DNA of 32,000 nt, taken from positions 1,110,001 through 1,142,000 of the forward strand of contig NZ_CP027570.1 of assembly GCF_003010495.1 (NCBI RefSeq), in the 5' to 3' direction. Below are positions 13,176-31,664 of the stretch, piece after piece. Made by a program: the position numbers and the translations under genes. Numbering within the stretch: the first letter of the stretch is position 1; every line of letters begins with the position of its first letter. This stretch comes from Megasphaera elsdenii DSM 20460. Its GTDB lineage: Bacteria; Bacillota; Negativicutes; Veillonellales; Megasphaeraceae. The notes under the pieces were generated by a model, which was not told the origin of the DNA, did not search any database, and saw nothing but the letters and a program-made list of their open reading frames with translations.

Positions 13176-13251
<76 letters not shown>

Positions 13252-13257
13252 GTAAAT

Positions 13258-13343
13258 GGTGGGGTTCCCGAGTGGCTAAAGGGAGCAGACTGTAAATCTG
13301 CCGGCGTTTGCCTTCGAAGGTTCGAATCCTTCCCCCACCACCA
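13258..13343 (+). tRNA. tRNA-Tyr (anticodon GUA), long variable arm, CCA encoded
   Basis: Acceptor GGTGGGG/CCCCACC, anticodon loop CTGTAAA, a 14-nt variable arm, T loop TTCGAAT. Confidence 0.9.
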
Positions 13344-13348
13344 ATTAT

Positions 13349-13424
<76 letters not shown>

Positions 13425-13481
13425 AATTTTTTTACTGCAAGGTAAAAAACAACTTCATAATTGGCTTTGACCAGTTCATAA

Positions 13482-13557
13482 GCTGTTGTAGCTCAGTCGG
13501 TAGAGCGTATCCTTGGTAAGGATAAGGTCACCGGTTCAATCCCGGTCAATAGCTCCA
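13482..13557 (+). tRNA. tRNA-Thr (anticodon GGU), CCA encoded
   Basis: Acceptor GCTGTTG/CAATAGC, anticodon stem TATCC/GGATA with loop TTGGTAA, T arm ACCGG-TTCAATC-CCGGT. Confidence 0.9.
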
Positions 13558-13562
13558 CACAT

Positions 13563-13639
13563 GGCGGCTTAGCTCAGTTGGCTAGAGCATGCGGTTCATA
13601 CCCGCAGTGTCCAGAGTTCGAATCTCCGAGCCGCCACCA
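13563..13639 (+). tRNA. Elongator tRNA-Met (anticodon CAU)
   Basis: Acceptor GGCGGCT/AGCCGCC, anticodon loop TTCATAC. This is not initiator-like because 1:72 is paired. The anticodon arm resembles Firmicutes elongator Met rather than Ile2, though Ile2-lysidine cannot be formally excluded. There is one A:C mismatch in the T stem. Confidence 0.8.
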
Positions 13640-13644
13640 CACTA

Positions 13645-13672
13645 ATAACCTCGTGCATACGAGGTTATTTCT
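13645..13672 (+). terminator. Hairpin plus short T tract after the tRNA cluster (partial terminator or processing hairpin before tuf)
   Basis: ATAACCTCGT-GCAT-ACGAGGTTAT forms a 10-bp stem with a 4-nt loop, followed by TTCT. Confidence 0.55.
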
Positions 13673-13733
13673 ATATGCAAAAATATTTTTTGTTTAAATT
13701 TATCCTTTTTTTTAAGCAAAGAGTATGGATGTG

Positions 13734-13742
13734 TGATAGAAT
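13734..13742 (+). promoter_or_regulatory. Possible extended -10 promoter (TGaTAGAAT) for tuf
   Basis: TGATAGAAT lies about 45 nt upstream of the tuf ATG. There is no convincing -35. Confidence 0.35.
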
Positions 13743-13787
13743 ACAAGTGGGTAGCTGTTTTTTTTCCTAAAGGAGGAAATGATTACA

Positions 13788-14975
13788 ATGGCAAAAGAAC
13801 ATTATGAAAGAACAAAACCGCATGTCAATATCGGTACGATTGGTCACGTCGACCATGGCAAAACGACATTGACGGCTGCTATTACGAAAGTATTAGCAAA
13901 GAAGGGCTTTGCCAAGTTCGAAGATTACTCCGATATTGACAAGGCACCGGAAGAACGTGAACGTGGTATTACGATTAATACGGCGCACGTCGAATATGAA
14001 ACGGAAAAACGCCACTATGCACATGTTGACTGCCCGGGGCATGCTGACTATGTCAAGAACATGATCACCGGTGCTGCTCAGATGGATGGTGCTATCCTCG
14101 TTGTATCCGCAGCTGATGGCCCGATGCCGCAGACTCGTGAACACATCCTGCTGGCCCGTCAGGTCGGCGTACCGGCTATCGTCGTATACCTCAACAAAGC
14201 TGACCAGGTCGACGACCCGGAACTGATTGAACTCGTTGAAATGGAAGTCCGTGACCTCCTGACTGAATATGATTATCCTGGCGATGAAGTTCCTATCATC
14301 GTAGGTTCTGCGTTGAAAGCCCTCGAAGGCGATCCGGAAGCTGAAAAATCCATCCTCGACTTGATGGATGCCGTCGACAGCTACATTCCGACTCCGCAGC
14401 GTCCGACAGACCAGCCGTTCCTGATGCCTGTCGAAGACGTCTTCACTATTACAGGCCGCGGCACCGTTGCTACAGGTCGTGTCGAACGCGGTACGATTAA
14501 AGTCGGTGACCCTGTCGAAATCGTCGGCCTCGCCGATAAACCGAAAGATACGGTCGTTACGGGCGTTGAAATGTTCCGTAAGATCCTCGACCTCGCTGAA
14601 GCAGGCGACAACATCGGCGCCTTGCTCCGCGGCATCGACCGTAAAGATGTCGAACGCGGCCAGGTCCTGGCTAAACCGGGCACCATTCATCCGCACACGA
14701 AATTCAAGGCTCAGGTCTATGTCTTGACCAAAGATGAAGGCGGCCGTCATACGCCGTTCTTCAACGGCTATCGTCCGCAGTTCTACTTCCGTACCACTGA
14801 CGTAACGGGCGTCATCAACCTGCCGGAAGGCACGGAAATGTGCATGCCTGGCGATAACGTCAAGATGGATGTCGAACTCATCACACCGATTGCTATTGAA
14901 GCAGGCCTGCGCTTCGCTATCCGTGAAGGCGGCCGTACCGTAGGTGCCGGTGTCGTATCCGAAATCGAAGGCTAA
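13788..14975 (+). CDS. tuf: Elongation factor Tu
   Basis: The translation [33 protein letters not shown]... is unmistakably EF-Tu. ATG 13788 has proper spacing from AGGAGG; the track start at 13779 is too close to the SD. Confidence 0.97.
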
Positions 14976-16518: not shown

Positions 16519-18039
16519 ATGGTATTTTTATTGGCACTGTCACCGATTCTGTGGCTCATCATCTCGCTGGGCTTCTTGAAGATGCAAAGCTTCAAGGCTT
16601 GTCCGATTGCACTCATCATTTCTTTTGCTGTCGCCCTGGCTTGGTATCATATGCCTGGCATGGATGCCGCTACGGCTGCTCTGGAAGGCGTGGCCCTGGC
16701 ATGCTGGCCTATCTTGCTGGTCATCATCGCCGCTATCTTTACGTATAATCTGACGCTGTACACCAAGAGCATGGACATCGTCAAGCACATGTTGACGACG
16801 GTCAGCAAGGACCGCCGCGTCCTGGCCCTGCTCATCGGCTGGGGCTTCGGTGCCTTCATGGAAGGCATGGCCGGCTTTGGTACGGCTATCGCTATCCCGG
16901 CCTCGATGTTGGTTGCCATGGGTTTCGACCCGATCAAGGCCATCCTGGTCTGCCTGGTCGCTAACTCCGTTCCTACGACGTATGGTTCCATTGGTATTCC
17001 GGCCAGCACTTTGGCTAACTTGACAGGTATCGATCCGGTACAGCTGTCGACATACATCAGCTTGCAGCTCTTGCCGCTCAATATCCTTTGCCCGTTCATC
17101 ATCGTCGCCATCGTCGGCGGATCGCTGAAAGCCCTCAAAGGCGTCTTCATGATCACCCTGCTTTCGGCCCTGGGTCTGGCTGTGCCGGAACTCATCGTTT
17201 CGTCTTTTGTCGGCCCGGAACTGGCTGTCATGGGTGCGTCCATTGTCATCATGGCCCTCATCGTCGTCTATTCCCATTTCCGTCCTGTCAATGATCCGGA
17301 ATATGCCATGGACATCAACCCGGCTCACGTACCGCTCCGCGGCGGTCTGCTGGCTTGCCTGCCCTTCATCTTGATCTTCGTCTTCTTACTGTTGACGTCG
17401 AAACTCGTTCCTTTCATCCATGCTCCGCTCATGGCTATTAAATCGTCGGTCCTCATCTATACCGGTCAGGGCGGCGTACCTTATACCTTCATCTGGGTCA
17501 ATACACCGGGTATCCTCATTCTCCTGGCTGCCTTCATCAGCGGCAAAGCCCAGTCGGCCCGCTTCAGTGAAATGTTCTTCGTCTTGCTGAACACCATCAA
17601 AGGCCTCCGCAATACGATCATCACCATCATTGCCGTCATCGCTACGGCGAAAGTCATGGGCTACAGCGGCATGACATCGGATATCGCCCGCACGGCTGTC
17701 GAAGCGACGGGTATGATGTATCCGGCCATTGCACCGCTCATCGGCTCTGTCGGCACGTTCATCACCGGTTCCGGTACGTCCAGTAACGTCCTCTTCGGCA
17801 ACCTCCAGACCGATGCTGCTGCCGCCATCAATGCCAATAAAGCCTGGCTGGCCGCTGCCAACTCGGCTGGTACCTGCGCGGGCAAGATGATTTCGCCGCA
17901 AAGTATCGCCATTGCCGTCGGGGCCATCTCCCTGACCGGCAAGGATAACGAAATCCTTCAGGCAATCATGAAAGTCTATGTACCATATATCATCCTCTTA
18001 GGGGCCATCGTCTACTTCGGACAGGTCCTGGTAGGGTAG
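16519..18039 (+). CDS. lctP: L-lactate permease (LctP family)
   Basis: A 506-aa polytopic protein. The EGMAGFGTAIAIPASMLVAMGF motif is typical of LctP/LldP. It sits beside the lactate-utilisation genes. Confidence 0.85.
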   Translation: MVFLLALSPILWLIISLGFLKMQSFKACPIALIISFAVALAWYHMPGMDAATAALEGVALACWPILLVIIAAIFTYNLTLYTKSMDIVKHMLTTVSKDRRVLALLIGWGFGAFMEGMAGFGTAIAIPASMLVAMGFDPIKAILVCLVANSVPTTYGSIGIPASTLANLTGIDPVQLSTYISLQLLPLNILCPFIIVAIVGGSLKALKGVFMITLLSALGLAVPELIVSSFVGPELAVMGASIVIMALIVVYSHFRPVNDPEYAMDINPAHVPLRGGLLACLPFILIFVFLLLTSKLVPFIHAPLMAIKSSVLIYTGQGGVPYTFIWVNTPGILILLAAFISGKAQSARFSEMFFVLLNTIKGLRNTIITIIAVIATAKVMGYSGMTSDIARTAVEATGMMYPAIAPLIGSVGTFITGSGTSSNVLFGNLQTDAAAAINANKAWLAAANSAGTCAGKMISPQSIAIAVGAISLTGKDNEILQAIMKVYVPYIILLGAIVYFGQVLVG

Positions 18040-18043
18040 GGAA

Positions 18044-18075
18044 AAAGGGACTGTCGCACATGCGACAGTCCCTTT
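18044..18075 (+). terminator. Terminator hairpin of lctP (CTGTCGC-family)
   Basis: AAAGGGACTGTCGCA-ca-TGCGACAGTCCCTTT forms a stem of about 14 bp, followed by TTTC. Confidence 0.65.
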
Positions 18076-18083
18076 CAAGTTGT

Positions 18084-18269
18084 TAGTGGCTAGCAGTTAG
18101 TGGTTAGTAGATGGTTTTAAATTTAAATGTTTTGCTGAAAGCTACAAACTTCATACTACAGACTATAAGGAGAAAGGGGCCTCACATAATAGCATGTGCT
18201 TTTGTGTGACAGCCCCTTTTCAGATGATTCAGGCGAGCCACGAACCACTAGCCACGAACCACTAGTCAC
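18084..18269. repeat. Intergenic element E3 flanked by inverted heptamer arrays
   Basis: The left array is TAGTGGC TAGCAGT TAGTGGT TAGTAG (18084-18110). The reverse complement of the right array (18235-18269) is TAGTGGT TCGTGGC TAGTGGT TCGTGGC. The interior is AT-rich and carries the hairpin AAAGGGGC...GCCCCTTT (18173-18220). Confidence 0.75.
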
Positions 18270-18600
18270 AAAACTTCCCTTTACGAACTATTCTATAACG
18301 AAAGAATAAGTGCCGTTTTTCACATACTATAACGAATTATCATGCTTGGTTTTCAACAGTACTTTTTGGTCATGGCTATTTTACAGGGGTTTCCTAATTT
18401 ATGATAAATAGTATCATTTTATTTTTGGGAATATTTGCTTTGAATGTCATTTATATGGCCATATATAGCTGTTTTCGTGGACAGAAAGGGTACGATTATC
18501 TTTTATATAAATAATTATAAATATCAAAATTTATAATTCTAAAGTGGAATGGATTTGTGCATTTTCCATGCATTTTAACTAATTTATCACGATTTATTCA

Positions 18601-18629
18601 TTGACGTTATGGATTTTCCATGATATCAT
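18601..18629 (+). promoter_or_regulatory. Probable promoter of the pct-lcd operon (TTGACG-17-TGaTATCAT)
   Basis: -35 at 18601-18606, an exact 17-nt spacer ending in TGA, and -10 TATCAT at 18624-18629. This predicts a leader of about 85 nt. Confidence 0.6.
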
Positions 18630-18645
18630 TCTAGTCAGTAATTCA

Positions 18646-18668
18646 CCTTTGGAAAATTTTCACAAAGG
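18646..18668. promoter_or_regulatory. 23-nt near-perfect palindrome in the pct leader, candidate operator
   Basis: The sequence is CCTTTG-GAAAATTTTC-a-CAAAGG. The core GAAAATTTTC is a perfect palindrome and the flanks are exact complements. It lies about 10-35 nt downstream of the predicted start site. Confidence 0.45.
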
Positions 18669-18720
18669 CAGTACGACAGAAGCGTCGATACATTCCATTT
18701 AGCAGGAGGAAGTTACGGTA

Positions 18721-20274
18721 ATGAGAAAAGTAGAAATCATTACAGCTGAACAAGCAGCTCAGCTCGTAAAAGACAACGACACGATTACGTCTATCGGCTT
18801 TGTCAGCAGCGCCCATCCGGAAGCACTGACCAAAGCTTTGGAAAAACGGTTCCTGGACACGAACACCCCGCAGAACTTGACCTACATCTATGCAGGCTCT
18901 CAGGGCAAACGCGATGGCCGTGCCGCTGAACATCTGGCACACACAGGCCTTTTGAAACGCGCCATCATCGGTCACTGGCAGACTGTACCGGCTATCGGTA
19001 AACTGGCTGTCGAAAACAAGATTGAAGCTTACAACTTCTCGCAGGGCACGTTGGTCCACTGGTTCCGCGCCTTGGCAGGTCATAAGCTCGGCGTCTTCAC
19101 CGACATCGGTCTGGAAACTTTCCTCGATCCCCGTCAGCTCGGCGGCAAGCTCAATGACGTAACCAAAGAAGACCTCGTCAAACTGATCGAAGTCGATGGT
19201 CATGAACAGCTTTTCTACCCGACCTTCCCGGTCAACGTAGCTTTCCTCCGCGGTACGTATGCTGATGAATCCGGCAATATCACCATGGACGAAGAAATCG
19301 GGCCTTTCGAAAGCACTTCCGTAGCCCAGGCCGTTCACAACTGTGGCGGTAAAGTCGTCGTCCAGGTCAAAGACGTCGTCGCTCACGGCAGCCTCGACCC
19401 GCGCATGGTCAAGATCCCTGGCATCTATGTCGACTACGTCGTCGTAGCAGCTCCGGAAGACCATCAGCAGACGTATGACTGCGAATACGATCCGTCCCTC
19501 AGCGGTGAACATCGTGCTCCTGAAGGCGCTACCGATGCAGCTCTCCCCATGAGCGCTAAGAAAATCATCGGCCGCCGCGGCGCTTTGGAATTGACTGAAA
19601 ACGCTGTCGTCAACCTCGGCGTCGGTGCTCCGGAATACGTTGCTTCTGTTGCCGGTGAAGAAGGTATCGCCGATACCATTACCCTGACCGTCGAAGGTGG
19701 CGCCATCGGTGGCGTACCGCAGGGCGGTGCCCGCTTCGGTTCGTCCCGCAATGCCGATGCCATCATCGACCACACCTATCAGTTCGACTTCTACGATGGC
19801 GGCGGTCTGGACATCGCTTACCTCGGCCTGGCCCAGTGCGATGGCTCGGGCAACATCAACGTCAGCAAGTTCGGTACTAACGTTGCCGGCTGCGGCGGTT
19901 TCCCCAACATTTCCCAGCAGACACCGAATGTTTACTTCTGCGGCACCTTCACGGCTGGCGGCTTGAAAATCGCTGTCGAAGACGGCAAAGTCAAGATCCT
20001 CCAGGAAGGCAAAGCCAAGAAGTTCATCAAAGCTGTCGACCAGATCACTTTCAACGGTTCCTATGCAGCCCGCAACGGCAAACACGTTCTCTACATCACA
20101 GAACGCTGCGTATTTGAACTGACCAAAGAAGGCTTGAAACTCATCGAAGTCGCACCGGGCATCGATATTGAAAAAGATATCCTCGCTCACATGGACTTCA
20201 AGCCGATCATTGATAATCCGAAACTCATGGATGCCCGCCTCTTCCAGGACGGTCCCATGGGACTGAAAAAATAA
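18721..20274 (+). CDS. pct: Propionate CoA-transferase (lactate/propionate:acetyl-CoA CoA-transferase)
   Basis: A 517-aa family I CoA-transferase with the catalytic Glu region LTVEGGAIGGVP. From memory the sequence matches the Megasphaera Pct used in polylactate engineering. RBS is AGGAGGA. Confidence 0.92.
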   Translation: MRKVEIITAEQAAQLVKDNDTITSIGFVSSAHPEALTKALEKRFLDTNTPQNLTYIYAGSQGKRDGRAAEHLAHTGLLKRAIIGHWQTVPAIGKLAVENKIEAYNFSQGTLVHWFRALAGHKLGVFTDIGLETFLDPRQLGGKLNDVTKEDLVKLIEVDGHEQLFYPTFPVNVAFLRGTYADESGNITMDEEIGPFESTSVAQAVHNCGGKVVVQVKDVVAHGSLDPRMVKIPGIYVDYVVVAAPEDHQQTYDCEYDPSLSGEHRAPEGATDAALPMSAKKIIGRRGALELTENAVVNLGVGAPEYVASVAGEEGIADTITLTVEGGAIGGVPQGGARFGSSRNADAIIDHTYQFDFYDGGGLDIAYLGLAQCDGSGNINVSKFGTNVAGCGGFPNISQQTPNVYFCGTFTAGGLKIAVEDGKVKILQEGKAKKFIKAVDQITFNGSYAARNGKHVLYITERCVFELTKEGLKLIEVAPGIDIEKDILAHMDFKPIIDNPKLMDARLFQDGPMGLKK

Positions 20275-20300
20275 ATCTCTGCTGTAAAGGAGACTTTACT

Positions 20301-21215
20301 ATGAAACCAATGAGACTACATCACGTAGGCATTGTCCTGCCGACCTTAGAAAAAGCCCATGAATTCATGCAGAATAATGGACTTGAAATCGACTATGCCG
20401 GCTATGTCGATGCTTACCAGGCTGATCTCATTTTCACTAAGTTTGGTGAATTTGCCAGCCCGATTGAAATGATTATCCCGCACTCCGGTGTGCTTACCCA
20501 ATTCAATGGTGGCCGCGGCGGCATTGCCCACATCGCCTTCGAAGTGGACGATGTCGAAGCTGTCCGCCAGGAAATGGAAGCAGATTGTCCGGGATGCATG
20601 TTAGAAAAGAAAGCTGTCCAGGGTACGGACGACATTATCGTCAACTTCCGCCGCCCGACAACCAACCAGGGTATCCTCGTTGAATATGTTCAGACGACAG
20701 CACCTATCACCGGCCGCGGCGAAAATCCTTTCGTTAAGAATCTCGGCCCGGAAAAAGGGAAGCTCAACGAAACATGGCATCCCATGCGCCTGCACCATAT
20801 CGGCATCGTCTTGCCGACCTTGGAAAAGGCCCATGAATTCATCAAGACCAATGGTCTGGAAGTGGATTATTCCGGTTTCGTCGACGCCTACCATGCGGAT
20901 CTCATTTTCACTAAAAAAGGTGAAAACAGTACGCCTATCGAATTCATTATTCCCCGTGAAGGGGTCCTCAAAGATTTCAATCATGGCAGGGGAGGTATCG
21001 CTCATATCGCCTTTGAAGTGGATGATGTCGAAAAGGTACGTCAGATTATGGAAAGCCAGAAGCCTGGTTGCATGCTCGAAAAGAAAGCCGTCCGGGGAAC
21101 GGACGATATCATCGTCAACTTCCGCCGTCCCAGCACGGACGCCGGCATCCTCGTCGAATATGTCCAGACCGTAGCTCCCATCAATCGCAGCAATCCCAAC
21201 CCTTTTAATGATTGA
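20301..21215 (+). CDS. Tandem-duplicated VOC-superfamily protein, methylmalonyl-CoA-epimerase-like (two modules in one chain)
   Basis: Residues 3-137 and 161-295 are about 79% identical (106/135 by hand). Each module carries LHH(V/I)GIV, GGIAHIAFEVDD and GILVEYVQ, the metal-ligand positions of MCE-type enzymes. RBS AAGGAG. It lies inside the pct-lcd operon. Confidence 0.8.
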   Translation: MKPMRLHHVGIVLPTLEKAHEFMQNNGLEIDYAGYVDAYQADLIFTKFGEFASPIEMIIPHSGVLTQFNGGRGGIAHIAFEVDDVEAVRQEMEADCPGCMLEKKAVQGTDDIIVNFRRPTTNQGILVEYVQTTAPITGRGENPFVKNLGPEKGKLNETWHPMRLHHIGIVLPTLEKAHEFIKTNGLEVDYSGFVDAYHADLIFTKKGENSTPIEFIIPREGVLKDFNHGRGGIAHIAFEVDDVEKVRQIMESQKPGCMLEKKAVRGTDDIIVNFRRPSTDAGILVEYVQTVAPINRSNPNPFND

Positions 21216-21231
21216 TTTTTTATAAAGAAAG

Positions 21232-22017
21232 GTGAAAACTGTGTATACTCTCGGAATCGACGTTGGTTCTTCTTCTTCCAAGGCAGTCATCCTGGAAGAT
21301 GGCAAGAAGATCGTCGCCCATGCCGTCGTTGAAATCGGCACCGGTTCGACCGGTCCGGAACGCGTCCTGGACGAAGTCTTCAAAGATACCAACTTAAAAA
21401 TTGAAGACATGGCGAACATCATCGCCACAGGCTATGGCCGTTTCAATGTCGACTGCGCCAAAGGCGAAGTCAGCGAAATCACGTGCCATGCCAAAGGGGC
21501 CCTCTTTGAATGCCCCGGTACGACGACCATCCTCGATATCGGCGGTCAGGACGTCAAGTCCATCAAATTGAATGGCCAGGGCCTGGTCATGCAGTTTGCC
21601 ATGAACGACAAATGCGCCGCTGGTACGGGCCGTTTCCTCGACGTCATGTCGAAGGTACTGGAAATCCCCATGTCTGAAATGGGGGACTGGTACTTCAAAT
21701 CGAAGCATCCCGCTGCCGTCAGCAGTACCTGCACGGTTTTTGCTGAATCGGAAGTCATTTCCCTTCTTTCCAAGAATGTCCCGAAAGAAGATATCGTAGC
21801 CGGTGTCCATCAGTCCATCGCCGCCAAAGCCTGCGCTCTCGTGCGCCGCGTCGGTGTCGGTGAAGACCTGACCATGACCGGCGGTGGCTCCCGCGATCCC
21901 GGCGTCGTCGATGCCGTATCGAAAGAATTAGGTATTCCTGTCAGAGTCGCTCTGCATCCCCAAGCGGTGGGTGCTCTCGGAGCTGCTTTGATTGCTTATG
22001 ATAAAATCAAGAAATAA
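21232..22017 (+). CDS. lcdC: Lactoyl-CoA dehydratase activator (2-hydroxyacyl-CoA dehydratase activase, HgdC family)
   Basis: YTLGIDVGSSSSK (ASKHA ATPase) and DKCAAGTGRF plus SSTCTVFAESEV (the Cys pair for the bridging 4Fe-4S cluster), closely parallel to Acidaminococcus HgdC. GTG 21241 is an alternative start with better SD spacing. Confidence 0.9.
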   Translation: MKTVYTLGIDVGSSSSKAVILEDGKKIVAHAVVEIGTGSTGPERVLDEVFKDTNLKIEDMANIIATGYGRFNVDCAKGEVSEITCHAKGALFECPGTTTILDIGGQDVKSIKLNGQGLVMQFAMNDKCAAGTGRFLDVMSKVLEIPMSEMGDWYFKSKHPAAVSSTCTVFAESEVISLLSKNVPKEDIVAGVHQSIAAKACALVRRVGVGEDLTMTGGGSRDPGVVDAVSKELGIPVRVALHPQAVGALGAALIAYDKIKK

Positions 22018-22038
22018 GTCAAAGGAGAGAACAAAATC

Positions 22039-23325
22039 ATGAGTGAAGAAAAAACAGTAGATATTGAAAGCATGAGCTCCAAGGAAGCCCTTGGTTACTT
22101 CTTGCCGAAAGTCGATGAAGACGCACGTAAAGCGAAAAAAGAAGGCCGCCTCGTTTGCTGGTCCGCTTCTGTCGCTCCTCCGGAATTCTGCACGGCTATG
22201 GACATCGCCATCGTCTATCCGGAAACTCACGCAGCTGGTATCGGTGCCCGTCACGGTGCTCCGGCCATGCTCGAAGTTGCTGAAAACAAAGGTTACAACC
22301 AGGACATCTGTTCCTACTGCCGCGTCAACATGGGCTACATGGAACTCCTCAAACAGCAGGCTCTGACAGGCGAAACGCCGGAAGTCCTCAAAAACTCCCC
22401 GGCTTCTCCGATTCCCCTTCCGGATGTTGTCCTCACTTGCAACAACATCTGCAATACCTTGCTCAAATGGTATGAAAACTTGGCTAAAGAATTGAACGTA
22501 CCTCTCATCAACATCGACGTACCGTTCAACCATGAATTCCCTGTTACGAAACACGCTAAACAGTACATCGTCGGCGAATTCAAACATGCTATCAAACAGC
22601 TCGAAGACCTTTGCGGCCGTCCCTTCGACTATGACAAATTCTTCGAAGTACAGAAACAGACACAGCGCTCCATCGCTGCCTGGAACAAAATCGCTACGTA
22701 CTTCCAGTACAAACCGTCGCCGCTCAACGGCTTCGACCTCTTCAACTACATGGGCCTCGCCGTTGCTGCCCGCTCCTTGAACTACTCGGAAATCACGTTC
22801 AACAAATTCCTCAAAGAATTGGACGAAAAAGTAGCTAATAAGAAATGGGCTTTCGGTGAAAACGAAAAATCCCGTGTTACTTGGGAAGGTATCGCTGTCT
22901 GGATCGCTCTCGGCCACACCTTCAAAGAACTCAAAGGTCAGGGCGCTCTCATGACTGGTTCCGCTTATCCTGGCATGTGGGACGTTTCCTACGAACCGGG
23001 CGACCTCGAATCCATGGCAGAAGCTTATTCCCGTACATACATCAACTGCTGCCTCGAACAGCGCGGTGCTGTTCTTGAAAAAGTTGTCCGCGATGGCAAA
23101 TGCGACGGCTTGATCATGCACCAGAACCGTTCCTGCAAGAACATGAGCCTCCTCAACAACGAAGGCGGCCAGCGCATCCAGAAGAACCTCGGCGTACCGT
23201 ACGTCATCTTCGACGGCGACCAGACCGATGCTCGTAACTTCTCGGAAGCACAGTTCGATACCCGCGTAGAAGCTTTGGCAGAAATGATGGCAGACAAAAA
23301 AGCCAATGAAGGAGGAAACCACTAA
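22039..23325 (+). CDS. lcdA: Lactoyl-CoA dehydratase alpha subunit (HgdA family)
   Basis: A 428-aa HgdA/HadB/LcdA-type protein, about 48 kDa as for the C. propionicum alpha subunit. It follows the activator and is translationally coupled to the next gene. Confidence 0.88.
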   Translation: MSEEKTVDIESMSSKEALGYFLPKVDEDARKAKKEGRLVCWSASVAPPEFCTAMDIAIVYPETHAAGIGARHGAPAMLEVAENKGYNQDICSYCRVNMGYMELLKQQALTGETPEVLKNSPASPIPLPDVVLTCNNICNTLLKWYENLAKELNVPLINIDVPFNHEFPVTKHAKQYIVGEFKHAIKQLEDLCGRPFDYDKFFEVQKQTQRSIAAWNKIATYFQYKPSPLNGFDLFNYMGLAVAARSLNYSEITFNKFLKELDEKVANKKWAFGENEKSRVTWEGIAVWIALGHTFKELKGQGALMTGSAYPGMWDVSYEPGDLESMAEAYSRTYINCCLEQRGAVLEKVVRDGKCDGLIMHQNRSCKNMSLLNNEGGQRIQKNLGVPYVIFDGDQTDARNFSEAQFDTRVEALAEMMADKKANEGGNH

Positions 23326-24443
23326 TGAGTCAGATCGACGAACTTATCAGCAAATTACAGGAAGTATCCAACCATCCCCAGAAGACGGTTTTGAATTATA
23401 AAAAACAGGGTAAAGGCCTCGTAGGCATGATGCCCTACTACGCTCCGGAAGAAATCGTATATGCTGCAGGCTACCTCCCGGTAGGCATGTTCGGTTCCCA
23501 GAACCCGCAGATCTCCGCAGCTCGTACGTACCTTCCTCCGTTCGCTTGCTCCTTGATGCAGGCTGACATGGAACTCCAGCTCAACGGCACCTATGACTGC
23601 CTCGACGCTGTTATCTTCTCCGTTCCTTGCGACACTCTCCGCTGCATGAGCCAGAAATGGCACGGCAAAGCTCCGGTCATCGTCTTCACACAGCCGCAGA
23701 ACCGTAAGATCCGCCCGGCTGTCGATTTCCTCAAAGCTGAATACGAACATGTCCGTACGGAATTGGAACGTATCCTCAACGTAAAAATCTCCGACCTGGC
23801 TATCCAGGAAGCTATCAAAGTATATAACGAAAACCGTCAGGTTATGCGTGAATTCTGCGACGTAGCTGCTCAGTACCCGCAGATCTTCACTCCGGTAAAA
23901 CGTCATGACGTCATCAAAGCCCGCTGGTTCATGGACAAAGCTGAACACACCGCTTTGGTCCGCGAACTCATCGACGCTGTCAAGAAAGAACCGGTACAGC
24001 CGTGGAATGGCAAAAAAGTCATCCTCTCCGGTATCATGGCAGAACCGGATGAATTCCTCGATATCTTCAGCGAATTCAACATCGCTGTCGTCGCTGACGA
24101 CCTCGCTCAGGAATCCCGCCAGTTCCGTACAGACGTACCGTCCGGCATCGATCCCCTCGAACAGCTCGCTCAGCAGTGGCAGGACTTCGATGGCTGCCCG
24201 CTCGCTTTGAACGAAGACAAACCGCGTGGCCAGATGCTCATCGACATGACTAAGAAATACAATGCTGACGCCGTCGTCATCTGCATGATGCGTTTCTGCG
24301 ATCCTGAAGAATTCGACTATCCGATTTACAAACCGGAATTTGAAGCTGCTGGCGTTCGTTACACGGTCCTCGACCTCGACATCGAATCTCCGTCCCTCGA
24401 ACAGCTCCGCACCCGTATCCAGGCTTTCTCGGAAATCCTCTAA
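23325..24443 (+). CDS. lcdB: Lactoyl-CoA dehydratase beta subunit (HgdB family)
   Basis: A 372-aa protein of about 42 kDa. Its start overlaps the lcdA stop (TAATG). It belongs to the 2-hydroxyglutaryl-CoA dehydratase D-component family. Confidence 0.88.
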   Translation: MSQIDELISKLQEVSNHPQKTVLNYKKQGKGLVGMMPYYAPEEIVYAAGYLPVGMFGSQNPQISAARTYLPPFACSLMQADMELQLNGTYDCLDAVIFSVPCDTLRCMSQKWHGKAPVIVFTQPQNRKIRPAVDFLKAEYEHVRTELERILNVKISDLAIQEAIKVYNENRQVMREFCDVAAQYPQIFTPVKRHDVIKARWFMDKAEHTALVRELIDAVKKEPVQPWNGKKVILSGIMAEPDEFLDIFSEFNIAVVADDLAQESRQFRTDVPSGIDPLEQLAQQWQDFDGCPLALNEDKPRGQMLIDMTKKYNADAVVICMMRFCDPEEFDYPIYKPEFEAAGVRYTVLDLDIESPSLEQLRTRIQAFSEIL

Positions 24444-24531
24444 GAATCGCCTGAATCATCAAACATCTGGGCGGGACTCCGAAAGGTGCCTGCTACATGA
24501 TACATTGCCTGTTTTCAGGCAGACAGATTTG

Positions 24532-24566
24532 CAGCTTGCGGCCCCCATTGTACGGGCTGCAAGCTG
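24532..24566 (+). other. 13-bp stem-loop in the lcdB-acd spacer (RNA stabiliser or processing element?)
   Basis: CAGCTTGCGGCCC pairs with GGGCTGCAAGCTG (one G:U pair) around a 9-nt loop. No T tract follows. Confidence 0.5.
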
Positions 24567-24580
24567 TCAATGATGCTTTA

Positions 24581-24601
24581 AAGACGGCTCTGCCGTTTTT
24601 A
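24581..24601 (+). terminator. Weak terminator or attenuator after lcdB
   Basis: GACGGC-tct-GCCGT is followed by T5. The stem is only 5-6 bp, so read-through is likely. Confidence 0.35.
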
Positions 24602-24648
24602 AATAAAAACATAAAACCATATATAATCTATTAGGAGGAAACTCAATC

Positions 24649-25797
24649 ATGGAATTCAAACTTTCTGAATTACAGCAAGATATCGCAAATCTCGCAAAAG
24701 ATTTCGCAGAAAAAAAATTAGCTCCCACTGTCAAAGAACGTGACGAAAAAGAAGTTTTCGATCGTGCTATCCTTGACGAAATGGGTACTCTCGGCCTTCT
24801 CGGTATTCCCTGGGAAGAAGAAAACGGCGGCGTAGGCGCTGACTTCCTCAGCCTCGCAGTTGCTTGCGAAGAAGTAGCTAAAGTTGACCCCTCCATCGCT
24901 CTCAGCTTCGAAGTACACACCATGCTCTGCTCCTGGCCGATTTGGAAATTTGGCACAGCTGAACAGAAAGCTAAATTCCTCAAACCCCTCGCAGAAGGCA
25001 CAAAACTCGGCGCTTTCGGCCTTACTGAACCGAACGCTGGTACCGACGCTTTGAACGGTTCCACCGTTGCTACGAAAAACGAAGACGGCAGCTACACCTT
25101 GAACGGCTCCAAAGTCTTCAACACCAACGGCGGCGAAGCTGACGTTACCGTCGTATTCGCTTCCACGGACAAATCCAAAGGCGCTAAAGGCATGAGCGCT
25201 TTCATCCTCGAAAAAGGTATGGAAGGCTTCACCTATGGCAAAGAAGAAGTTAAAATGGGTATCCGCGCTTCCGTACAGCGTGAACTCGTATTCCAGAACG
25301 TAAAAGTTCCGGCTGAAAACCTCCTCGGCAAAGAAGGCGAAGGCTTCAAGATCGCTATGATGACCCTCGACGGCGGCCGTGTTGGCGTTGGCGCACAGGC
25401 TCTCGGCATTGCGGAAGGCGCTTACAATGCAGCTGTTCAGTATGCTAAAGAACGTACACAGTTCGGCAAACCGATCGCTAAATTCCAGGCTATCAGCTTC
25501 ATGCTCGCTGACATGAAACTCAAAATCGAAACGGCTCGCCTCGCTGTCTACAAAGCAGCTTGGAAAATGGCTCAGCCCGACGTTAAATCCTACTCCGTAG
25601 ACGCAGCTATCGCTAAGAAATACGCTTCTGACGTAGCTATGCAGGTCACCACCGATGCTGTCCAGGTATTCGGCGGCTATGGCTTCACTCGCGAATACCC
25701 GGTTGAACGCTACATGCGCGACGCTAAGATCACTCAGATCTACGAAGGTACCAACCAGGTACAGCAGATGGTTATCTCCGGCGCAATCCTCAGATAA
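24649..25797 (+). CDS. Short-chain acyl-CoA dehydrogenase (candidate acryloyl-CoA reductase / propionyl-CoA dehydrogenase component)
   Basis: A 382-aa protein with GAFGLTEPNAGTDA and C-terminal QIYEGTNQVQQMVISGAILR (catalytic Glu). It looks like a paralogue of butyryl-CoA dehydrogenase and lies downstream of lcdCAB. Confidence 0.88.
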   Translation: MEFKLSELQQDIANLAKDFAEKKLAPTVKERDEKEVFDRAILDEMGTLGLLGIPWEEENGGVGADFLSLAVACEEVAKVDPSIALSFEVHTMLCSWPIWKFGTAEQKAKFLKPLAEGTKLGAFGLTEPNAGTDALNGSTVATKNEDGSYTLNGSKVFNTNGGEADVTVVFASTDKSKGAKGMSAFILEKGMEGFTYGKEEVKMGIRASVQRELVFQNVKVPAENLLGKEGEGFKIAMMTLDGGRVGVGAQALGIAEGAYNAAVQYAKERTQFGKPIAKFQAISFMLADMKLKIETARLAVYKAAWKMAQPDVKSYSVDAAIAKKYASDVAMQVTTDAVQVFGGYGFTREYPVERYMRDAKITQIYEGTNQVQQMVISGAILR

Positions 25798-25880
25798 TCA
25801 AAGAGTTTCCTAACAGAACTCTCCTCCTTTCGAAACACGTATAGAAATAGTATAAAACAGTATGAGATAAAACCGCTTAC

Positions 25881-25918
25881 AAAGAGAGGCTGTCGCCGAT
25901 GCGACAGCCTCTCTTTTT
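25881..25918. terminator. Bidirectional terminator between acd and the panE-like gene (CTGTCGC-family)
   Basis: AAAGAGAGGCTGTCGC-cgat-GCGACAGCCTCTCTTT is followed by TT. The A tract upstream and the T tract downstream serve both strands. Confidence 0.8.
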
Positions 25919-25933
25919 GCGTTTGGAGCGCCT

Positions 25934-26827
25934 TTACACCAAGGCTTGATAGCACTTTTCCGATATGGGGACGGGCACGCCATACTGATGGGCCAGGCGG
26001 ATGAGGGCGCCGCTGAAGGTATCCAGTTCGCTCTGGTGACCGGCAGCGATGTCTCGTTTGAGGGAGCTCGTGGCGTCCATGTCGTCGCTGCCCAGGATGC
26101 GCCGGTACTGGTCGTCGACGACGTCATCGGGCAGGGGAACGCCGGCAGCCTTGCCGACGTCATAGGCTTCCTGCAGGAGGGCCCGGAATTCTTCCTTGCC
26201 CTGGGGCTGGGAGAGGGCTCCGCCGATAGATGTCCGGTAATATGCCGTCAGGACGTTGTAAGCGCAGTTGAGGATGAATTTGCGCCATATTTCGACGGTG
26301 ATGTTCTCTGCGATGCAGCAAGTCAGGCCCGGATGATTTAGGACATCGTAGACCTTCTTCGTCGCTTCAGCGTCATCGGATCCGATGTAGATACGGGCGA
26401 AGCGCCCTTCCTGGCGGATGGAATAGTCTTCTTGATAAGACGATGTGATGTAAATGGCTGAGTCAACGATTTTCCCGTTCTTCATGATGGATGTAGCCGT
26501 ATCGTGATAGGTGAAGCCATTGAGGACGGGGACGACGATCGTATCGTCACCGATGCAGGGCAGGACCGCTGTCAGGGCTGCTTCCAGGGAATAATTCTTG
26601 ACGCAGACGAAAATCACATCCTGTATGCCTGCCGAAGATGGATCATCGGTGACAGCCGGGTGGGCGACGTGGTGGCCGAAGAAGTCGCTGTGGACGACGA
26701 GGCCCTTCGTCTGGAGCGATTCTTTGCGCTTTTTCCGGGCAACGAGTGTCACATCATCATAATTGGCACAGAGGACGGACGCGATATATCCCCCGACGCC
26801 GCCAATGCCAGTAACCATAATTTTCAT
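25934..26827 (-). CDS. 2-dehydropantoate 2-reductase family protein (PanE/ApbA fold)
   Basis: MKIMVTGIGGVGGYIASVL is a Rossmann GxGxxG N-terminus. The 297-aa length and C-terminal helical domain are typical of the KPR family. Confidence 0.75.
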   Translation of the reverse strand: MKIMVTGIGGVGGYIASVLCANYDDVTLVARKKRKESLQTKGLVVHSDFFGHHVAHPAVTDDPSSAGIQDVIFVCVKNYSLEAALTAVLPCIGDDTIVVPVLNGFTYHDTATSIMKNGKIVDSAIYITSSYQEDYSIRQEGRFARIYIGSDDAEATKKVYDVLNHPGLTCCIAENITVEIWRKFILNCAYNVLTAYYRTSIGGALSQPQGKEEFRALLQEAYDVGKAAGVPLPDDVVDDQYRRILGSDDMDATSSLKRDIAAGHQSELDTFSGALIRLAHQYGVPVPISEKCYQALV

Positions 26828-28968: not shown

Positions 28969-29060
28969 AGCCTTTCTGGCAAATAGGTAATAAAAACGTT
29001 TAACCAAATTAATAATATAACGTTTAACGGAATAAAATTTAAAAATATTAATAAAAAGCC

Positions 29061-29090
29061 TTGACAATCAGCCTCTTTTCATGGATAATA
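29061..29090 (+). promoter_or_regulatory. Promoter of the T-box leader (TTGACA-17-GATAAT)
   Basis: -35 TTGACA at 29061-29066, a 17-nt spacer ending in TG, and GATAAT at 29084-29089. Confidence 0.7.
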
Positions 29091-29134
29091 GGCACATCAC
29101 ACAAACAGGGCACTGTGAAAGCAGTGCAGATATA

Positions 29135-29380
29135 CTGACGATGAACGGGTAAAAGACGAGATCCCATCCTCTGCAGAGAGCCGGCGGTGCTGAGAATCCG
29201 GCGAGGTGCAATCGTCCGACTTCGCCCGGGAGTTTCTGTACCGACTGTTTTTCTAGGGAATTGAGGTACAGACGCAATCCCGCGTTATAGGATGTCTGTC
29301 AAAGACACTGAGTATAATGACAGGGTGGTACCGCGACTCATCGCCCCTGTTGCTCCGCCGGAGCAGCAGGGGCTTTTTAT
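29135..29380 (+). promoter_or_regulatory. T-box riboswitch leader (tRNA-sensing transcription attenuator); specifier tentatively UUC (Phe)
   Basis: - K-turn: GAC-GAU-GA at 29137-29144, paired with GGAG at 29229-29232.
- AG bulge CAGAGAG at 29174-29180, and distal loop GGTGCTGAGAA.
- Specifier loop 3' side: CGAC-UUC-G at 29217-29224.
- Stem II: TCTGTACC/GGTACAGA. F-box-like CGCGTTAT. Stem III: TGTCT/AGACA.
- Conserved T-box sequence AATGACAGGGTGGTACCGCG at 29317-29335.
- Terminator: CCCCTGTTGCTCC-gccg-GGAGCAGCAGGGG plus T5 at 29344-29379. Confidence 0.85.
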
Positions 29381-29460
29381 ATCCCCTGGGTGTGACTTTT
29401 ACAGTATTCATTATCAATTTATGTTAGGTATTTTGGTATTCAGGTAAAGAGGTATTGGCT

Positions 29461-30783
29461 ATGGAAAAAGCAATGGGTAAGATCATGACCGCCGCAGCTG
29501 AAACGCGGGCTGCTGCTGGTACGATGACGAACTTCCGATGGAAAATCGCGTTTTTAATCTTTTTAATCAGTTTTGTCGCTTATATGGACCGCGTCAACCT
29601 TTCCGTTGCAACGCCGGTCATCATGCAGGAATTTGGTTTCACCAAAATCGACATGGGCTTCATTCAGACCTGTTTCTTCGCCAGCTACGCTTTGATGCAG
29701 GTCCCCGGCGGTATCCTGGCTGAAAAATTCGGCATGCGCAAGACCGGGGCTTTGGCTATTCTTTGGTGGTCCGTCTTCACGGCCCTGACTGCCTTAGCTA
29801 AAGGCAAGATCAGCTTCGCTGCTGTCCGCCTGGCTTTCGGCCTCGGCGAAGGTCCCGTTTTCCCGTCCTTAGGGGCTGCCACCTTTACGTGGTTCAATAA
29901 ACACGAAAAAGGCAAGGCCAGCTCGTCCATCTTATTAGGCACCTTCTTCGGCCCCGTCGTCGGTCCCGTCGCTACAGTCGCTCTCATGGGCCTCTTCGGC
30001 TGGCACGCCGTCTTCATCATCTTCGGTCTCGTCGGCATCGCCCTGGCCTGGGTATGGCACCGCTTCGCCTGCGATAATCCGGCAGACAGCCCTTATGTCA
30101 ATGCGGAAGAAGCTGCTTACATCAACGAAGGCCGTTCGGCTGACTCCCTGAAGAAAGCCGTCGCTCCCTGGAGCAAATTCCTTCGTTCGACCCAGTTCTG
30201 GGCTGTCGGCATCCAGTTCATGGTCGTCGACTACATCATGTACGTCTTCCTGGCATGGCTTCCCATGTATTTGACGGAAGTTCACAACATGTCCCTGAAA
30301 TCCATGGGCTTCTGGGCTTCCTGCCCGTGGATTGCTTTGATGGCTATGGTCTTCTTAGCCGGCTTCGTTTCCGACAAGATCGCCAATGGCAGCCACAGCG
30401 AAATGCAGTATAAAATGCGTACCGTTACGGCCATGGCCGGCGTAGCCGTTACGTCTCTCGGCCTGTACATCGCATCTCATACGGCCGACCCGGCTATGAA
30501 CATCTTCTGGATGTCCGTTTCCCTCGGTGCTTTGGGCTTCGCTATGAGCGCCAGCTGGTCTTCCGTCATCTCCCTGGGCGGCAAATACACCGGTTCCGTT
30601 TCCGGCTGGATCAACCTCTGGGGCAACATCGGCGGCGTCCTGGCTCCGATTGTCACCGCTTTCTTCGTCACCAACTACGGCTGGAACAATGCCTTCACGG
30701 CAACGTCCCTGTTCGGCATCATCGCCATCGTAGCCTGGATCTTCGTAAAACCGGGCAAACAACTCGTCCCGCAGGATAAGTGA
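29461..30783 (+). CDS. MFS transporter, anion:cation symporter (ACS) family (hexuronate/galactonate/aromatic-acid transporter-like)
   Basis: Twelve predicted TM segments. The motifs FVAYMDRVNLSVATP and GGILAEKFGMRKT (MFS motif A region) are typical of DgoT/ExuT/GudP-like carriers. ATG 29461 lies 8 nt after AAAGAGG; the track TTG at 29455 is too close to the SD. Confidence 0.8.
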   Translation: MEKAMGKIMTAAAETRAAAGTMTNFRWKIAFLIFLISFVAYMDRVNLSVATPVIMQEFGFTKIDMGFIQTCFFASYALMQVPGGILAEKFGMRKTGALAILWWSVFTALTALAKGKISFAAVRLAFGLGEGPVFPSLGAATFTWFNKHEKGKASSSILLGTFFGPVVGPVATVALMGLFGWHAVFIIFGLVGIALAWVWHRFACDNPADSPYVNAEEAAYINEGRSADSLKKAVAPWSKFLRSTQFWAVGIQFMVVDYIMYVFLAWLPMYLTEVHNMSLKSMGFWASCPWIALMAMVFLAGFVSDKIANGSHSEMQYKMRTVTAMAGVAVTSLGLYIASHTADPAMNIFWMSVSLGALGFAMSASWSSVISLGGKYTGSVSGWINLWGNIGGVLAPIVTAFFVTNYGWNNAFTATSLFGIIAIVAWIFVKPGKQLVPQDK

Positions 30784-30784
30784 T

Positions 30785-30804
30785 TAGTGGCTAGGGGCTA
30801 GTAG
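30785..30804 (+). repeat. Heptamer array TAGTGGC TAGGGGC TAGTAG immediately after the MFS stop codon
   Basis: The TGA stop is at 30781. TAG then occurs at 30785, 30792 and 30799 (period 7), so all three frames are closed within 14 nt of the stop. Confidence 0.8.
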
Positions 30805-30932
30805 GGGCCGTCCCAAAGGGCGGCCCGCAGACCGCAGGCCGCGGATACATTCGTAGGGGCCGTCCCAAAGGGCGGCCCGCAGACCGCAGGCCACGGATAC
30901 ATTCGTAGGGGCCGTCCCAAAGGGCGGCCCGC
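30801..30932 (+). repeat. 52-nt tandem repeat, 2.5 copies, of the GTAGGGG hairpin module
   Basis: Copies start at 30801, 30853 and 30905. Copies 1 and 2 differ at one base (G 30841 vs A 30893). The unit is GTAGGGGCCGTCCCAAAGGGCGGCCCGCAGACCGCAGGCCGCGGATACATTC. Confidence 0.95.
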
Positions 30933-30941
30933 TTTTTTTTT
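30905..30941 (+). terminator. Rho-independent terminator of the MFS gene, formed by the last repeat copy
   Basis: GGGCCGTCCC-aaa-GGGCGGCCC is followed by GC and T9 (30933-30941). Confidence 0.85.
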
Positions 30942-31552: not shown

Positions 31553-31664
31553 GTAGGGGTACCCACGTGGGGCGTCCGCCAAATTTCCAAAATGTCCCGA
31601 AACGTTCCCGAAACGTAGGGGCGCCCGCGTGGGGCGCCCGCCAAATTTCCAAAATGTTCCCGAA
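31553..31664 (+). repeat. 62-nt tandem repeat (about 1.8 copies) of a GTAGGGG-type module between the two hsp20 genes
   Basis: Copies start at 31553 and 31615. The unit is GTAGGGG(T/C)(A/G)CCC(A/G)CGTGGGGCG(T/C)CCGCCAAATTTCCAAAATGT(T)CCCGAA. Copy 1 has an extra internal GTTCCCGAAAC duplication. Confidence 0.9.

Follow-up and report, generated by a model that had tools for sequence, protein, structure and literature searches.

Here we describe a T-box riboswitch and the transporter gene that follows it in Megasphaera elsdenii, within a 32,000-nucleotide stretch of the DSM 20460 genome (contig NZ_CP027570.1, positions 1,110,001 to 1,142,000; the whole stretch is called the window, and coordinates count from its first letter). 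The element is a genuine and complete class I T-box riboswitch, i.e., a real transcription attenuator, an assignment that we regard as virtually certain. Together with the gene it forms a monocistronic unit (29061-30938), whose product is a major facilitator superfamily (MFS) carrier of the anion:cation symporter (ACS) type. A preliminary description of this DNA had proposed that the leader reads a Phe codon and that the carrier imports an anionic precursor of Phe. Taken as a whole, the explanation that we favour, and consider probable, keeps the first proposal and broadens the second: a T-box reading Phe would be set on a carboxylate carrier that serves hydrophobic amino acids generally.

A complete class I T-box leader

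Orthologs were taken from 20 genomes and 80 metagenome contigs, supplemented by several look-ups of contigs, and their loci are labelled L001 onward. The first of them, from M. elsdenii strain MSK.21.52, encodes a transporter protein 100% identical to that of the window. The T-box model used was RF00230 of Rfam, with a curated gathering score of 93 bits. In a permissive scan it spans 29132-29351 over model positions 1-219 with 87.3 bits (E 1.2e-19), marginally under the gathering score. As that score is 93, the T-box was missed when the whole window was scanned at the gathering threshold, which returned tRNAs only. The leader of the near-identical strain L002 reaches 93.1 bits and that of M. 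paucivorans (L022) 95.3 bits, the orthologous leaders ranging from 62 to 95 bits. Since the shortfall is marginal and each testable individual feature is present, we still file the leader as a member of RF00230. Indeed, every element listed in the preliminary description, from a strong promoter through a complete T-box leader, was found in its place. The leader is organized as follows, the positions of Stems I, II, IIA/B and III being those of the covariance-model (CM) alignment.

29132-29351, plus strand: T-box leader, full-length match to RF00230
29138-29233, plus strand: Stem I
29140-29145 (GAUGAA) with 29229-29231 (GGA), plus strand: kink-turn (K-turn) of Stem I
29146-29149 (CGGG) with 29225-29228 (CCCG), plus strand: basal helix of Stem I
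29155-29159 (GACGA) with 29212-29216 (UCGUC), plus strand: helix of Stem I
29175-29179 (AGAGA) and 29191-29195 (UGAGA), plus strand: elbow-binding T-loops of Stem I
29221-29224, plus strand: proposed specifier UUC (29221-29223) and the stacking purine G29224 on its 3′ side
29236-29242 pairing with 29265-29271, plus strand: Stem II
29273-29287, plus strand: Stem IIA/B element, with the F-box-like CCGCGUUA
29294-29306, plus strand: Stem III (GUCU ... AGAC), 86% of cells paired
29321-29349, plus strand: antiterminator, in which helices A1 and A2 flank the bulge UGGUACC of 7 nt (29326-29332), -12.1 kcal/mol
29323-29335, plus strand: conserved T-box sequence GGGUGGUACCGCG
29343-29378, plus strand: intrinsic terminator with a 14-bp stem (29343-29373) and a 3-nt loop, then UUUUU; -35.2 kcal/mol, z -5.8

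The structure is supported by covariation, analyzed over 42 pairs in 11 orthologous leaders, with slid partners and 500 shuffles as controls. In these leaders 90.6% of the cells are paired, versus 36-43% with slid partners, and compensatory changes on both sides occur in 22 of the 42 pairs, including both helices that bracket the specifier loop, a number reached by none of the 500 shuffles. All of the Stem I helices (1-5 of the analysis) show compensatory changes; in Stem II six of seven pairs have changed on both sides and 96% of the cells are paired, and in the terminator the figures are six pairs and 99.4%. The CGUUA of Stem IIA/B is invariant, and the two T-loops can be set beside the consensus AGAGA and UGxRA (PMC7583486). 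When Stem I is folded by free energy alone it takes a non-canonical form (z +1.4), as expected for a stem rich in non-canonical motifs, and its structure was taken from covariation instead.

Downstream lie the two halves of the switch. The nine pairs of the antiterminator are all invariant in the 11 leaders, GGGTGGTACCGCG is exact in each T-box ortholog, and the UGGU of the bulge (29326-29329), complementary to the ACCA at the 3′ end of tRNA, is present in all leaders. The terminator and its run of five T, noted in the preliminary description, are confirmed. The 3′ arm of the antiterminator and the 5′ arm of the terminator share 29343-29349 and, because of this overlap, the two folds are mutually exclusive. 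With an uncharged tRNA, ACCA would pair with UGGU, the antiterminator would be stabilised and RNA polymerase would continue into the single downstream gene; with a charged tRNA, the 14-bp terminator and its U5 would form and transcription would stop. Both the binding of tRNA and the response to starvation are predicted here from the modules of the leader.

A variant of the switch was observed in one metagenome contig (L032 2360-2380), whose protein is 98% identical: the T-box core reads GGGTGGTGCGA in place of GGGTGGTACCGCGA, a 4-nt deletion that takes out part of the tRNA-binding bulge and is due either to natural loss of function in this allele or to a fault in the assembly.

The specifier and its register

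The 3′ strand of the specifier loop is CGACUUCG (C-G-A-C-U-U-C-G) at 29217-29224, exactly as had been claimed from the sequence. It is unpaired and consists of an S-turn-like GAC, then UUC, then G, the boundaries of the loop being fixed by the covarying helices CGGG/CCCG and GACGA/UCGUC. UUC, AUC and GUC occupy the same CM columns in all leaders, those of the specifier; C is invariant at the third codon position, with G as the following base in nine leaders and A in two. A purine directly 3′ of the codon is functionally critical in T-boxes, and a C in the third position is enforced by the Stem II S-turn (PMC7583486). The default frame of TBDB gives the same register. With high confidence, the specifier is UUC and the tRNA sensed is tRNA-Phe, as the preliminary description had it; the CM and the flanking helices agree with this choice. 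Moreover, by textbook identity rules tRNA-Phe, tRNA-Ile and tRNA-Val have A73 as discriminator base, which the UGGU bulge would fit.

A register shifted by one base has to be weighed here. The true specifier would then be UCG or UCA (29222-29224), i.e., Ser everywhere, and the cargo a serine precursor such as glycerate or hydroxypyruvate. Columns 98-100 of the leader alignment would read UCG in nine leaders and UCA in two, all Ser codons, and leaders of the Sporomusaceae type would also give UCA; specificity would be conserved with no switching needed, which is more parsimonious, a small polyhydroxy acid would suit a polar pocket, and TBDB does provide for +1 and -1 frames. However, the +1 frame is without an unpaired purine on its 3′ side, the next base (C29225) being paired in the covarying basal helix, and it violates the third-position-C rule set by the Stem II S-turn, whereas the G/A variation is what a conserved stacking purine predicts. 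Furthermore, bacterial tRNA-Ser has, by textbook rules, G73, which needs UGGC as against the invariant UGGU. As it fails the purine, third-position and discriminator rules, the Ser register was rejected, and we hold it to be very improbable.

In the UUC register, Stem I would offer 29221-29223, with G29224 stacked beneath, to the anticodon of tRNA-Phe(GAA), while the AGAGA and UGAGA T-loops would dock on the elbow of the tRNA.

Specifier variation and the history of the leader

Specifier calls were read by eye from the leader alignments, and are distributed among the orthologs as follows.

UUC (Phe): M. elsdenii group, M. cerevisiae (L008), M. paucivorans (L021/L022)
AUC (Ile): L009, L010/L036-38, M. 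hominis L014/L039-41, L018, L042-47, L048
GUC (Val): L012, one metagenome-assembled genome (MAG) only
no T-box: one subclade lying within the Megasphaera clade that bears T-boxes (L005-7, L011, L013, L015, L020, L034, L035)
no T-box: Anaeroglobus and relatives (L019, L023, L026, L049-51); the clade of 60-66% identity

The Phe codon of the window is thus not kept across orthologous leaders: AUC is the specifier in most Megasphaera lineages, UUC occurs in three separate ones and GUC in one. The leader tree, calculated with the specifier masked, mirrors the protein tree, and therefore one inherited leader has been retargeted by point mutation, not replaced. The UUC leaders form three clades, and in each case the sister reads AUC or GUC; the leaders of L012 (GUC) and L018 (AUC) are 82% identical. 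Further out, T-boxes lie directly upstream of three homologs of 52-53% identity in Sporomusaceae/Veillonellales MAGs, all with AUC followed by A; these distant Ile T-boxes score 100.3 bits (L113), 81.1 bits (L117/L118) and 71.7 bits (L119). Since they serve as an outgroup, Ile is the most parsimonious ancestral state, and the history looks like one of three changes to Phe, including that of the M. elsdenii lineage, and one to Val.

Each retargeting would correspond to a single change at the first codon position of the inherited Ile T-box. All four NUC codons specify hydrophobic amino acids, and by textbook rules their tRNAs have G34 and A73. Because these two bases are shared, a first-position change needs no other adjustment of the leader, and the invariance of UGGU across leaders agrees with the common A73. 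In the T-box-less orthologs, a search for riboswitches of known kind found no replacement.

Two further observations concern these loci. In M. paucivorans the transporter leader is preceded by a gap of 1.4 kb, which holds a second T-box match of 63 bits on the opposite strand (L022 4052-4310, minus strand); no open reading frame of at least 60 amino acids follows this match, which could be a remnant or the control element of a small gene that has escaped annotation. In the clade of 60-66% identity (L108 1-704, L110 1-496 and many of L052-L107), the transporter gene is located immediately downstream of the end of a 23S-5S rRNA operon, and since this operon end adjoins, many of the contigs break 200-1000 nt upstream of the gene.

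The transporter and its predicted binding residues

The coding part of the unit comprises the following features.

29446-29452, plus strand: ribosome-binding site AAAGAGG, 8 nt before the ATG at 29461, read from the sequence
29461-30783, plus strand: MFS transporter of the anion:cation symporter type (ACS/SLC17; TC 2.A.1.14), 440 amino acids

Orthologs share the start ATGGAAAA. That the first gene downstream encodes an ACS-family MFS carrier, as had been recognized from the translation, is borne out by profile and structure searches. The protein matches Pfam MFS_1 with 201 bits (E 3e-59); its best NCBIfam match is TIGR00893 (ACS/D-galactonate), at 220.9 bits and thus below the curated cutoff of 395; and the best solved relative is DgoT (6E9N, E 8e-46), with sialin and VGLUTs also among the top PDB matches. 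Judged by these matches, the transporter belongs to the broad ACS family, outside the curated D-galactonate-transporter subfamily.

The residues Y44, D46, R47, Y79, E133, Q264, S370 and N393 of DgoT correspond to Y41, D43, R44, Y76, E130, Q252, S363 and N385 of the window protein, Q252 being shifted by one column in the MAFFT alignment relative to the HMMER one, and Q164 is replaced by T161. Over 120 homologs R44, D43 and E130 are essentially invariant, with a single G at the D43 position. In DgoT, R47, the Arg of transmembrane helix 1, pairs with the substrate carboxylate, and D46 and E133 are in charge of proton coupling (PMC10149257); Y44, R47, Y79 and N393 bind the C1 carboxylate and the C2 hydroxyl (PMC10149257; bioRxiv 10.64898/2026.05.20.726482). 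By this correspondence, the transporter is quite probably a carboxylate:H+ importer, and its substrate very likely bears a 2-hydroxy or similar group next to the carboxylate, while the residues do not reveal the side chain. Both the direction of transport and the cargo are predicted here from sequence.

What the carrier may import

The orthologous carriers remain ~80% identical while the sensor moves between Phe, Ile and Val, which makes it more likely that they serve hydrophobic amino acids generally; that the cargo is not Phe-specific we consider likely. It is at this point that the substrate proposed in the preliminary description, a Phe-specific anionic precursor (phenylpyruvate, phenyllactate or phenylacetate) reported by the Phe specifier, has lost ground. 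It would account for UUC in M. elsdenii, M. cerevisiae and M. paucivorans, for a phenyllactate-active racemase in M. elsdenii and for the organic anions that ACS carriers move. Nevertheless, orthologs with the same pocket signature stand under Ile or Val specifiers, the three distant outgroup homologs read Ile, UUC would have arisen three times from AUC by one base change, and some orthologs have lost the T-box. Phenylacetate in particular is without the C2 group bound by the conserved anchor (Y41/R44/Y76/N385), and fits it less well than 2-hydroxy or 2-oxo acids. Altogether, a Phe-specific precursor appears improbable.

The cargo that we rank first, though tentatively, consists of the 2-hydroxy and 2-oxo acid analogues of hydrophobic amino acids, which fit the chemistry of the family. 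Candidates would be phenyllactate/phenylpyruvate and the 2-hydroxy/2-oxo forms of 3-methylvalerate and isovalerate, to be turned into amino acids in the cell. M. elsdenii possesses a racemase, LarAH10, that acts on phenyllactate and on many other hydrophobic 2-hydroxy acids (PMC7583248, PMC11770544). One could imagine, with somewhat less assurance still, that this ACS subfamily of Negativicutes is a dedicated salvage importer of such analogues under the control of tRNA charging, for which the identity of the sensed tRNA would be nearly neutral. Phenyllactate, hydroxy-methylvalerate and hydroxy-isovalerate released by lactic acid bacteria would be taken up and converted by the racemase (LarAH10), a dehydrogenase and an aminotransferase into Phe, Ile and Val. 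As one cargo pool would supply several amino acids, the specifier could drift inside the NUC box with the riboswitch otherwise unchanged.

Second in rank comes the possibility that the T-box works as described and that the carrier, a broad permease like those of the LIVCS family, takes up the hydrophobic amino acids as such (Phe, Ile, Val, perhaps Leu), which seems rather unlikely to us. Most transporters under T-box control move the cognate amino acid, there are documented cases of multi-specific carriers governed by the T-box of a single amino acid, the Phe/Ile/Val switching fits a broad hydrophobic carrier, and an amino acid too would present a C1 carboxylate to R44. On the other hand, sugar acids are the substrates of the nearest relatives that have been characterised, the residues of the anchor are tuned to bind a carboxylate together with a C2 hydroxyl, and at the level of sequence no acidic pocket residue is evident for the alpha-amino group. 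In addition, transport of neutral amino acids is rare in the ACS family, the yeast Yct1 for cysteine being one case.

The Phe-specific precursor ranks third, and last is an ordinary catabolic carrier of sugar acids or of hydroxy-dicarboxylates of the malate/tartrate type, whose T-box would be decaying or co-opted with no substrate logic. Its best family and structure matches are galactonate-type, with Q252, S363 and N385 kept; homologs adjoin a malate-racemase-like LarA gene and a fumarase gene; one Megasphaera subclade has lost the T-box and L032 carries the 4-nt deletion in its core; and conserved AACGTTTAA boxes upstream of the promoter (see below) point to a second, protein-mediated control. 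Yet the T-box is intact and covarying, with a perfect terminator/antiterminator pair, over ~75-100% of protein identity, a second clade of the family independently has Ile T-boxes, and the LarA-adjacent homologs are other members of the family, T-box-less and different at positions 161, 256 and 363. A catabolic carrier is, to our judgement, quite improbable.

LarA-family racemase genes adjoin homologs in Sporomusa, in Pelosinus and in one metagenome contig. Of these enzymes, that of Pelosinus is most similar to malate racemase, and a fumarase gene follows its own; these transporters look malate-related and are probably malate-type paralogs. A substrate taken from the LarA neighbourhood was rejected for the Megasphaera protein, the homologs concerned being T-box-less and pocket-divergent.

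Several points weigh against the explanation that we favour, i.e., a Phe-reading T-box on a carboxylate carrier for hydrophobic amino acids generally. Besides the score of the leader below the gathering score, the energy fold of Stem I and the malate-related paralogs, already mentioned, no gene for tRNA-Phe, tRNA-Ile or tRNA-Val was found in the window or in the ~36 fetched loci, and for this reason the A73 match rests on textbook identity rules. Only one MAG (L012) shows the GUC specifier. When specifiers are swapped by engineering, full activity is never attained (review PMC7583486), and retargeted leaders may be sub-optimal in function. Two of the three distal polar positions of the galactonate pocket are retained (Q252, S363), and no mark of a hydrophobic pocket is seen. 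No metabolic partner gene lies next to the M. elsdenii transporter, and, as a 2024 paper suggests, the native substrate of LarAH10 may be gluconate.

As regards the neighbourhood of the homologs, a gene for a 345-residue Beta_elim_lyase protein (threonine-aldolase-like) stands two genes downstream of the transporter both in Anaeroglobus, which has no T-box (L023 7074-8111), and in a Veillonellales MAG with an Ile T-box (L117 6042-7079), which may represent a conserved synteny relevant to function.

Relation to known systems

The leader shares all its modules, in canonical order, with class I T-boxes that have a Stem II, such as that of Bacillus subtilis tyrS (RF00230): K-turn, specifier loop with its 3′ purine, AGAGA/UGxRA T-loops, Stem II, the IIA/B pseudoknot with the F-box, Stem III, the UGGN bulge and the competing terminator. 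It differs from them in an extra 5′ hairpin, in an S-turn triplet that is GAC and not GAA, in a score just under the gathering one and in its target, an ACS-family MFS carrier and neither an aminoacyl-tRNA synthetase nor a biosynthetic operon.

Among published systems, the nearest parallel is that of the LIVCS (BrnQ-type) carriers, which are regulated by T-boxes of different hydrophobic specifiers, so that multi-specific carriers are put under individual amino acids, with a patchy, lineage-specific presence (Wels et al. 2008, PMC2494555). There too, related carriers stand under T-boxes of differing hydrophobic specifiers. Unlike the LIVCS case, the Megasphaera carrier belongs to another transporter superfamily, the variation occurs within one orthologous gene-leader pair, and the change is a point mutation of an inherited leader, not a matter of separate acquisitions, which crosses from branched-chain amino acids to an aromatic one (Phe). 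Further precedents exist for an MFS carrier under a T-box, for a Phe T-box on a transporter and for uptake of precursors controlled by a T-box: in the Bacillus cereus group a Lys T-box is associated with an MFS and a Phe T-box with an NSS carrier, and in L. plantarum Met T-boxes precede ATP-binding cassette (ABC) importers of precursors or cofactors (PMC2494555).

From the side of the transporter, E. coli DgoT and other ACS sugar-acid:H+ symporters (LgoT, ExuT, GarP, GudP), together with SLC17, have the same family fold, the Y/R/Y/N anchor and the proton-coupling D and E. The window carrier is set apart from the DgoT group by a score far below the TIGR00893 cutoff, by T161 in place of Q164, by the lack of a nearby sugar-acid catabolic gene, and by a regulation through tRNA charging instead of a sugar-acid repressor.

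T-boxes on transporters, MFS included, and natural changes of specifier are thus already established. As far as the searchable literature shows, with TBDB not covered, neither an ACS-type anion carrier nor an example from Negativicutes has been described under a T-box, and within the same scope the new elements are the ACS-type target, the Negativicutes setting and the repeated single-base retargeting of one orthologous leader between Ile, Phe and Val.

T-box specifiers are one of the few clues to the function of uncharacterised transporters that sequence alone provides, and in the present case they connect an ACS/SLC17-type carrier, widespread among the Negativicutes of gut and rumen yet so far unstudied, with hydrophobic amino-acid supply. 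At the same time they call for caution in annotation: a substrate call that relies on the specifier of one genome can be misleading, as sister leaders read Phe, Ile or Val. The series constitutes a natural experiment of clean single-base retargeting in the NUC box, suited to probe the specificity that resides outside the codon. Furthermore, if the salvage idea were true, it would define a route of cross-feeding between lactic acid bacteria and Megasphaera, relevant to the amino-acid economy of rumen and gut.

Promoter, upstream boxes and 5′ hairpin

Upstream of Stem I, the following elements are recognized.

28995-29003 and 29019-29027, plus strand: two AACGTTTAA boxes, half-sites of the palindrome TTAAACGTTTAA, upstream of the -35 element
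29061-29089, plus strand: sigma-70-type promoter, TTGACA, 17 nt, GATAAT, 11 of 12 consensus positions
29110-29127, plus strand: accessory 5′ hairpin (G29110-C29127) preceding Stem I, with 7 bp and a GAAA loop; -11.1 kcal/mol, z -4.2

TTGACA and GGATAAT are unchanged across all the aligned orthologous leaders, and transcription would start ~6-7 nt past the -10 element (29084-29089). The two AACGTTTAA boxes are 24 nt apart, with their centres ~73 and ~97 nt upstream of this start. They are the only matches in the whole window, for a chance expectation of 0.16. Megasphaera orthologs, T-box-bearing and T-box-less alike, retain copies ahead of the -35, and M. paucivorans has about five of them upstream of the orthologous promoter. 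This suggests that the pair is a putative binding site of a DNA-binding regulator, adding a second, protein-mediated control.

The extra hairpin before Stem I, also pointed out in the preliminary description, was found again. Most T-box orthologs (L008, L010, L012, L014, L018, L022, L042) have a hairpin of 6-9 bp and of different sequence at this position; L004, a close relative, has lost it by deletion. It probably serves, or at least may serve, to stabilise the 5′ end of the transcript.

Genomic surroundings

Upstream of the T-box unit lies a cluster for lactate utilisation by the acrylate pathway, with the content given below.

16519-26827: genes for a lactate permease, CoA transferase, glyoxalase-fold protein, 2-hydroxyacyl-CoA dehydratase activator and two subunits, and acyl-CoA dehydrogenase

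It is followed, on the minus strand and 2.2 kb upstream of the T-box promoter, by a gene for a 2-oxoacid reductase of the PanE/ApbA family; a P-type ATPase gene is also among the upstream genes. More distant, the stretch 13176-14975 is that of a cluster of five tRNA genes (Thr-TGT, Tyr-GTA, Met-CAT, Thr-GGT, Met-CAT), with the gene for elongation factor Tu (EF-Tu) directly after them.

Other riboswitches were noted in the flanks of homologs at L112 (5628-5734, minus strand; 10221-10397), L119 (8625-8794, minus strand) and L026 (9478-9593, minus strand). Their kinds are S-adenosylmethionine (SAM; aminotransferase/MetQ-like operon), lysine (before a diaminopimelate (DAP)-decarboxylase-like gene), M-box and ZMP/ZTP (before a PFL-like gene), and none is linked to the transporter.

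On the 3′ side of the transporter gene, the transcript ends within a repeated element.

30801-30938, plus strand: GC-rich hairpin repeat of 52 nt in 2.5 tandem copies (GGGGCCGTCCCAAAGGGCGGCCC...; also delimited as 30801-30932)

The last repeat hairpin (30909-30930) and a T-run make up the transcript end. Beyond it, two Hsp20 genes have their own promoter, and comparable GC-rich hairpin repeats lie between them at about 31553-31650; both sets are intergenic elements resembling repetitive extragenic palindromes (REP-like).

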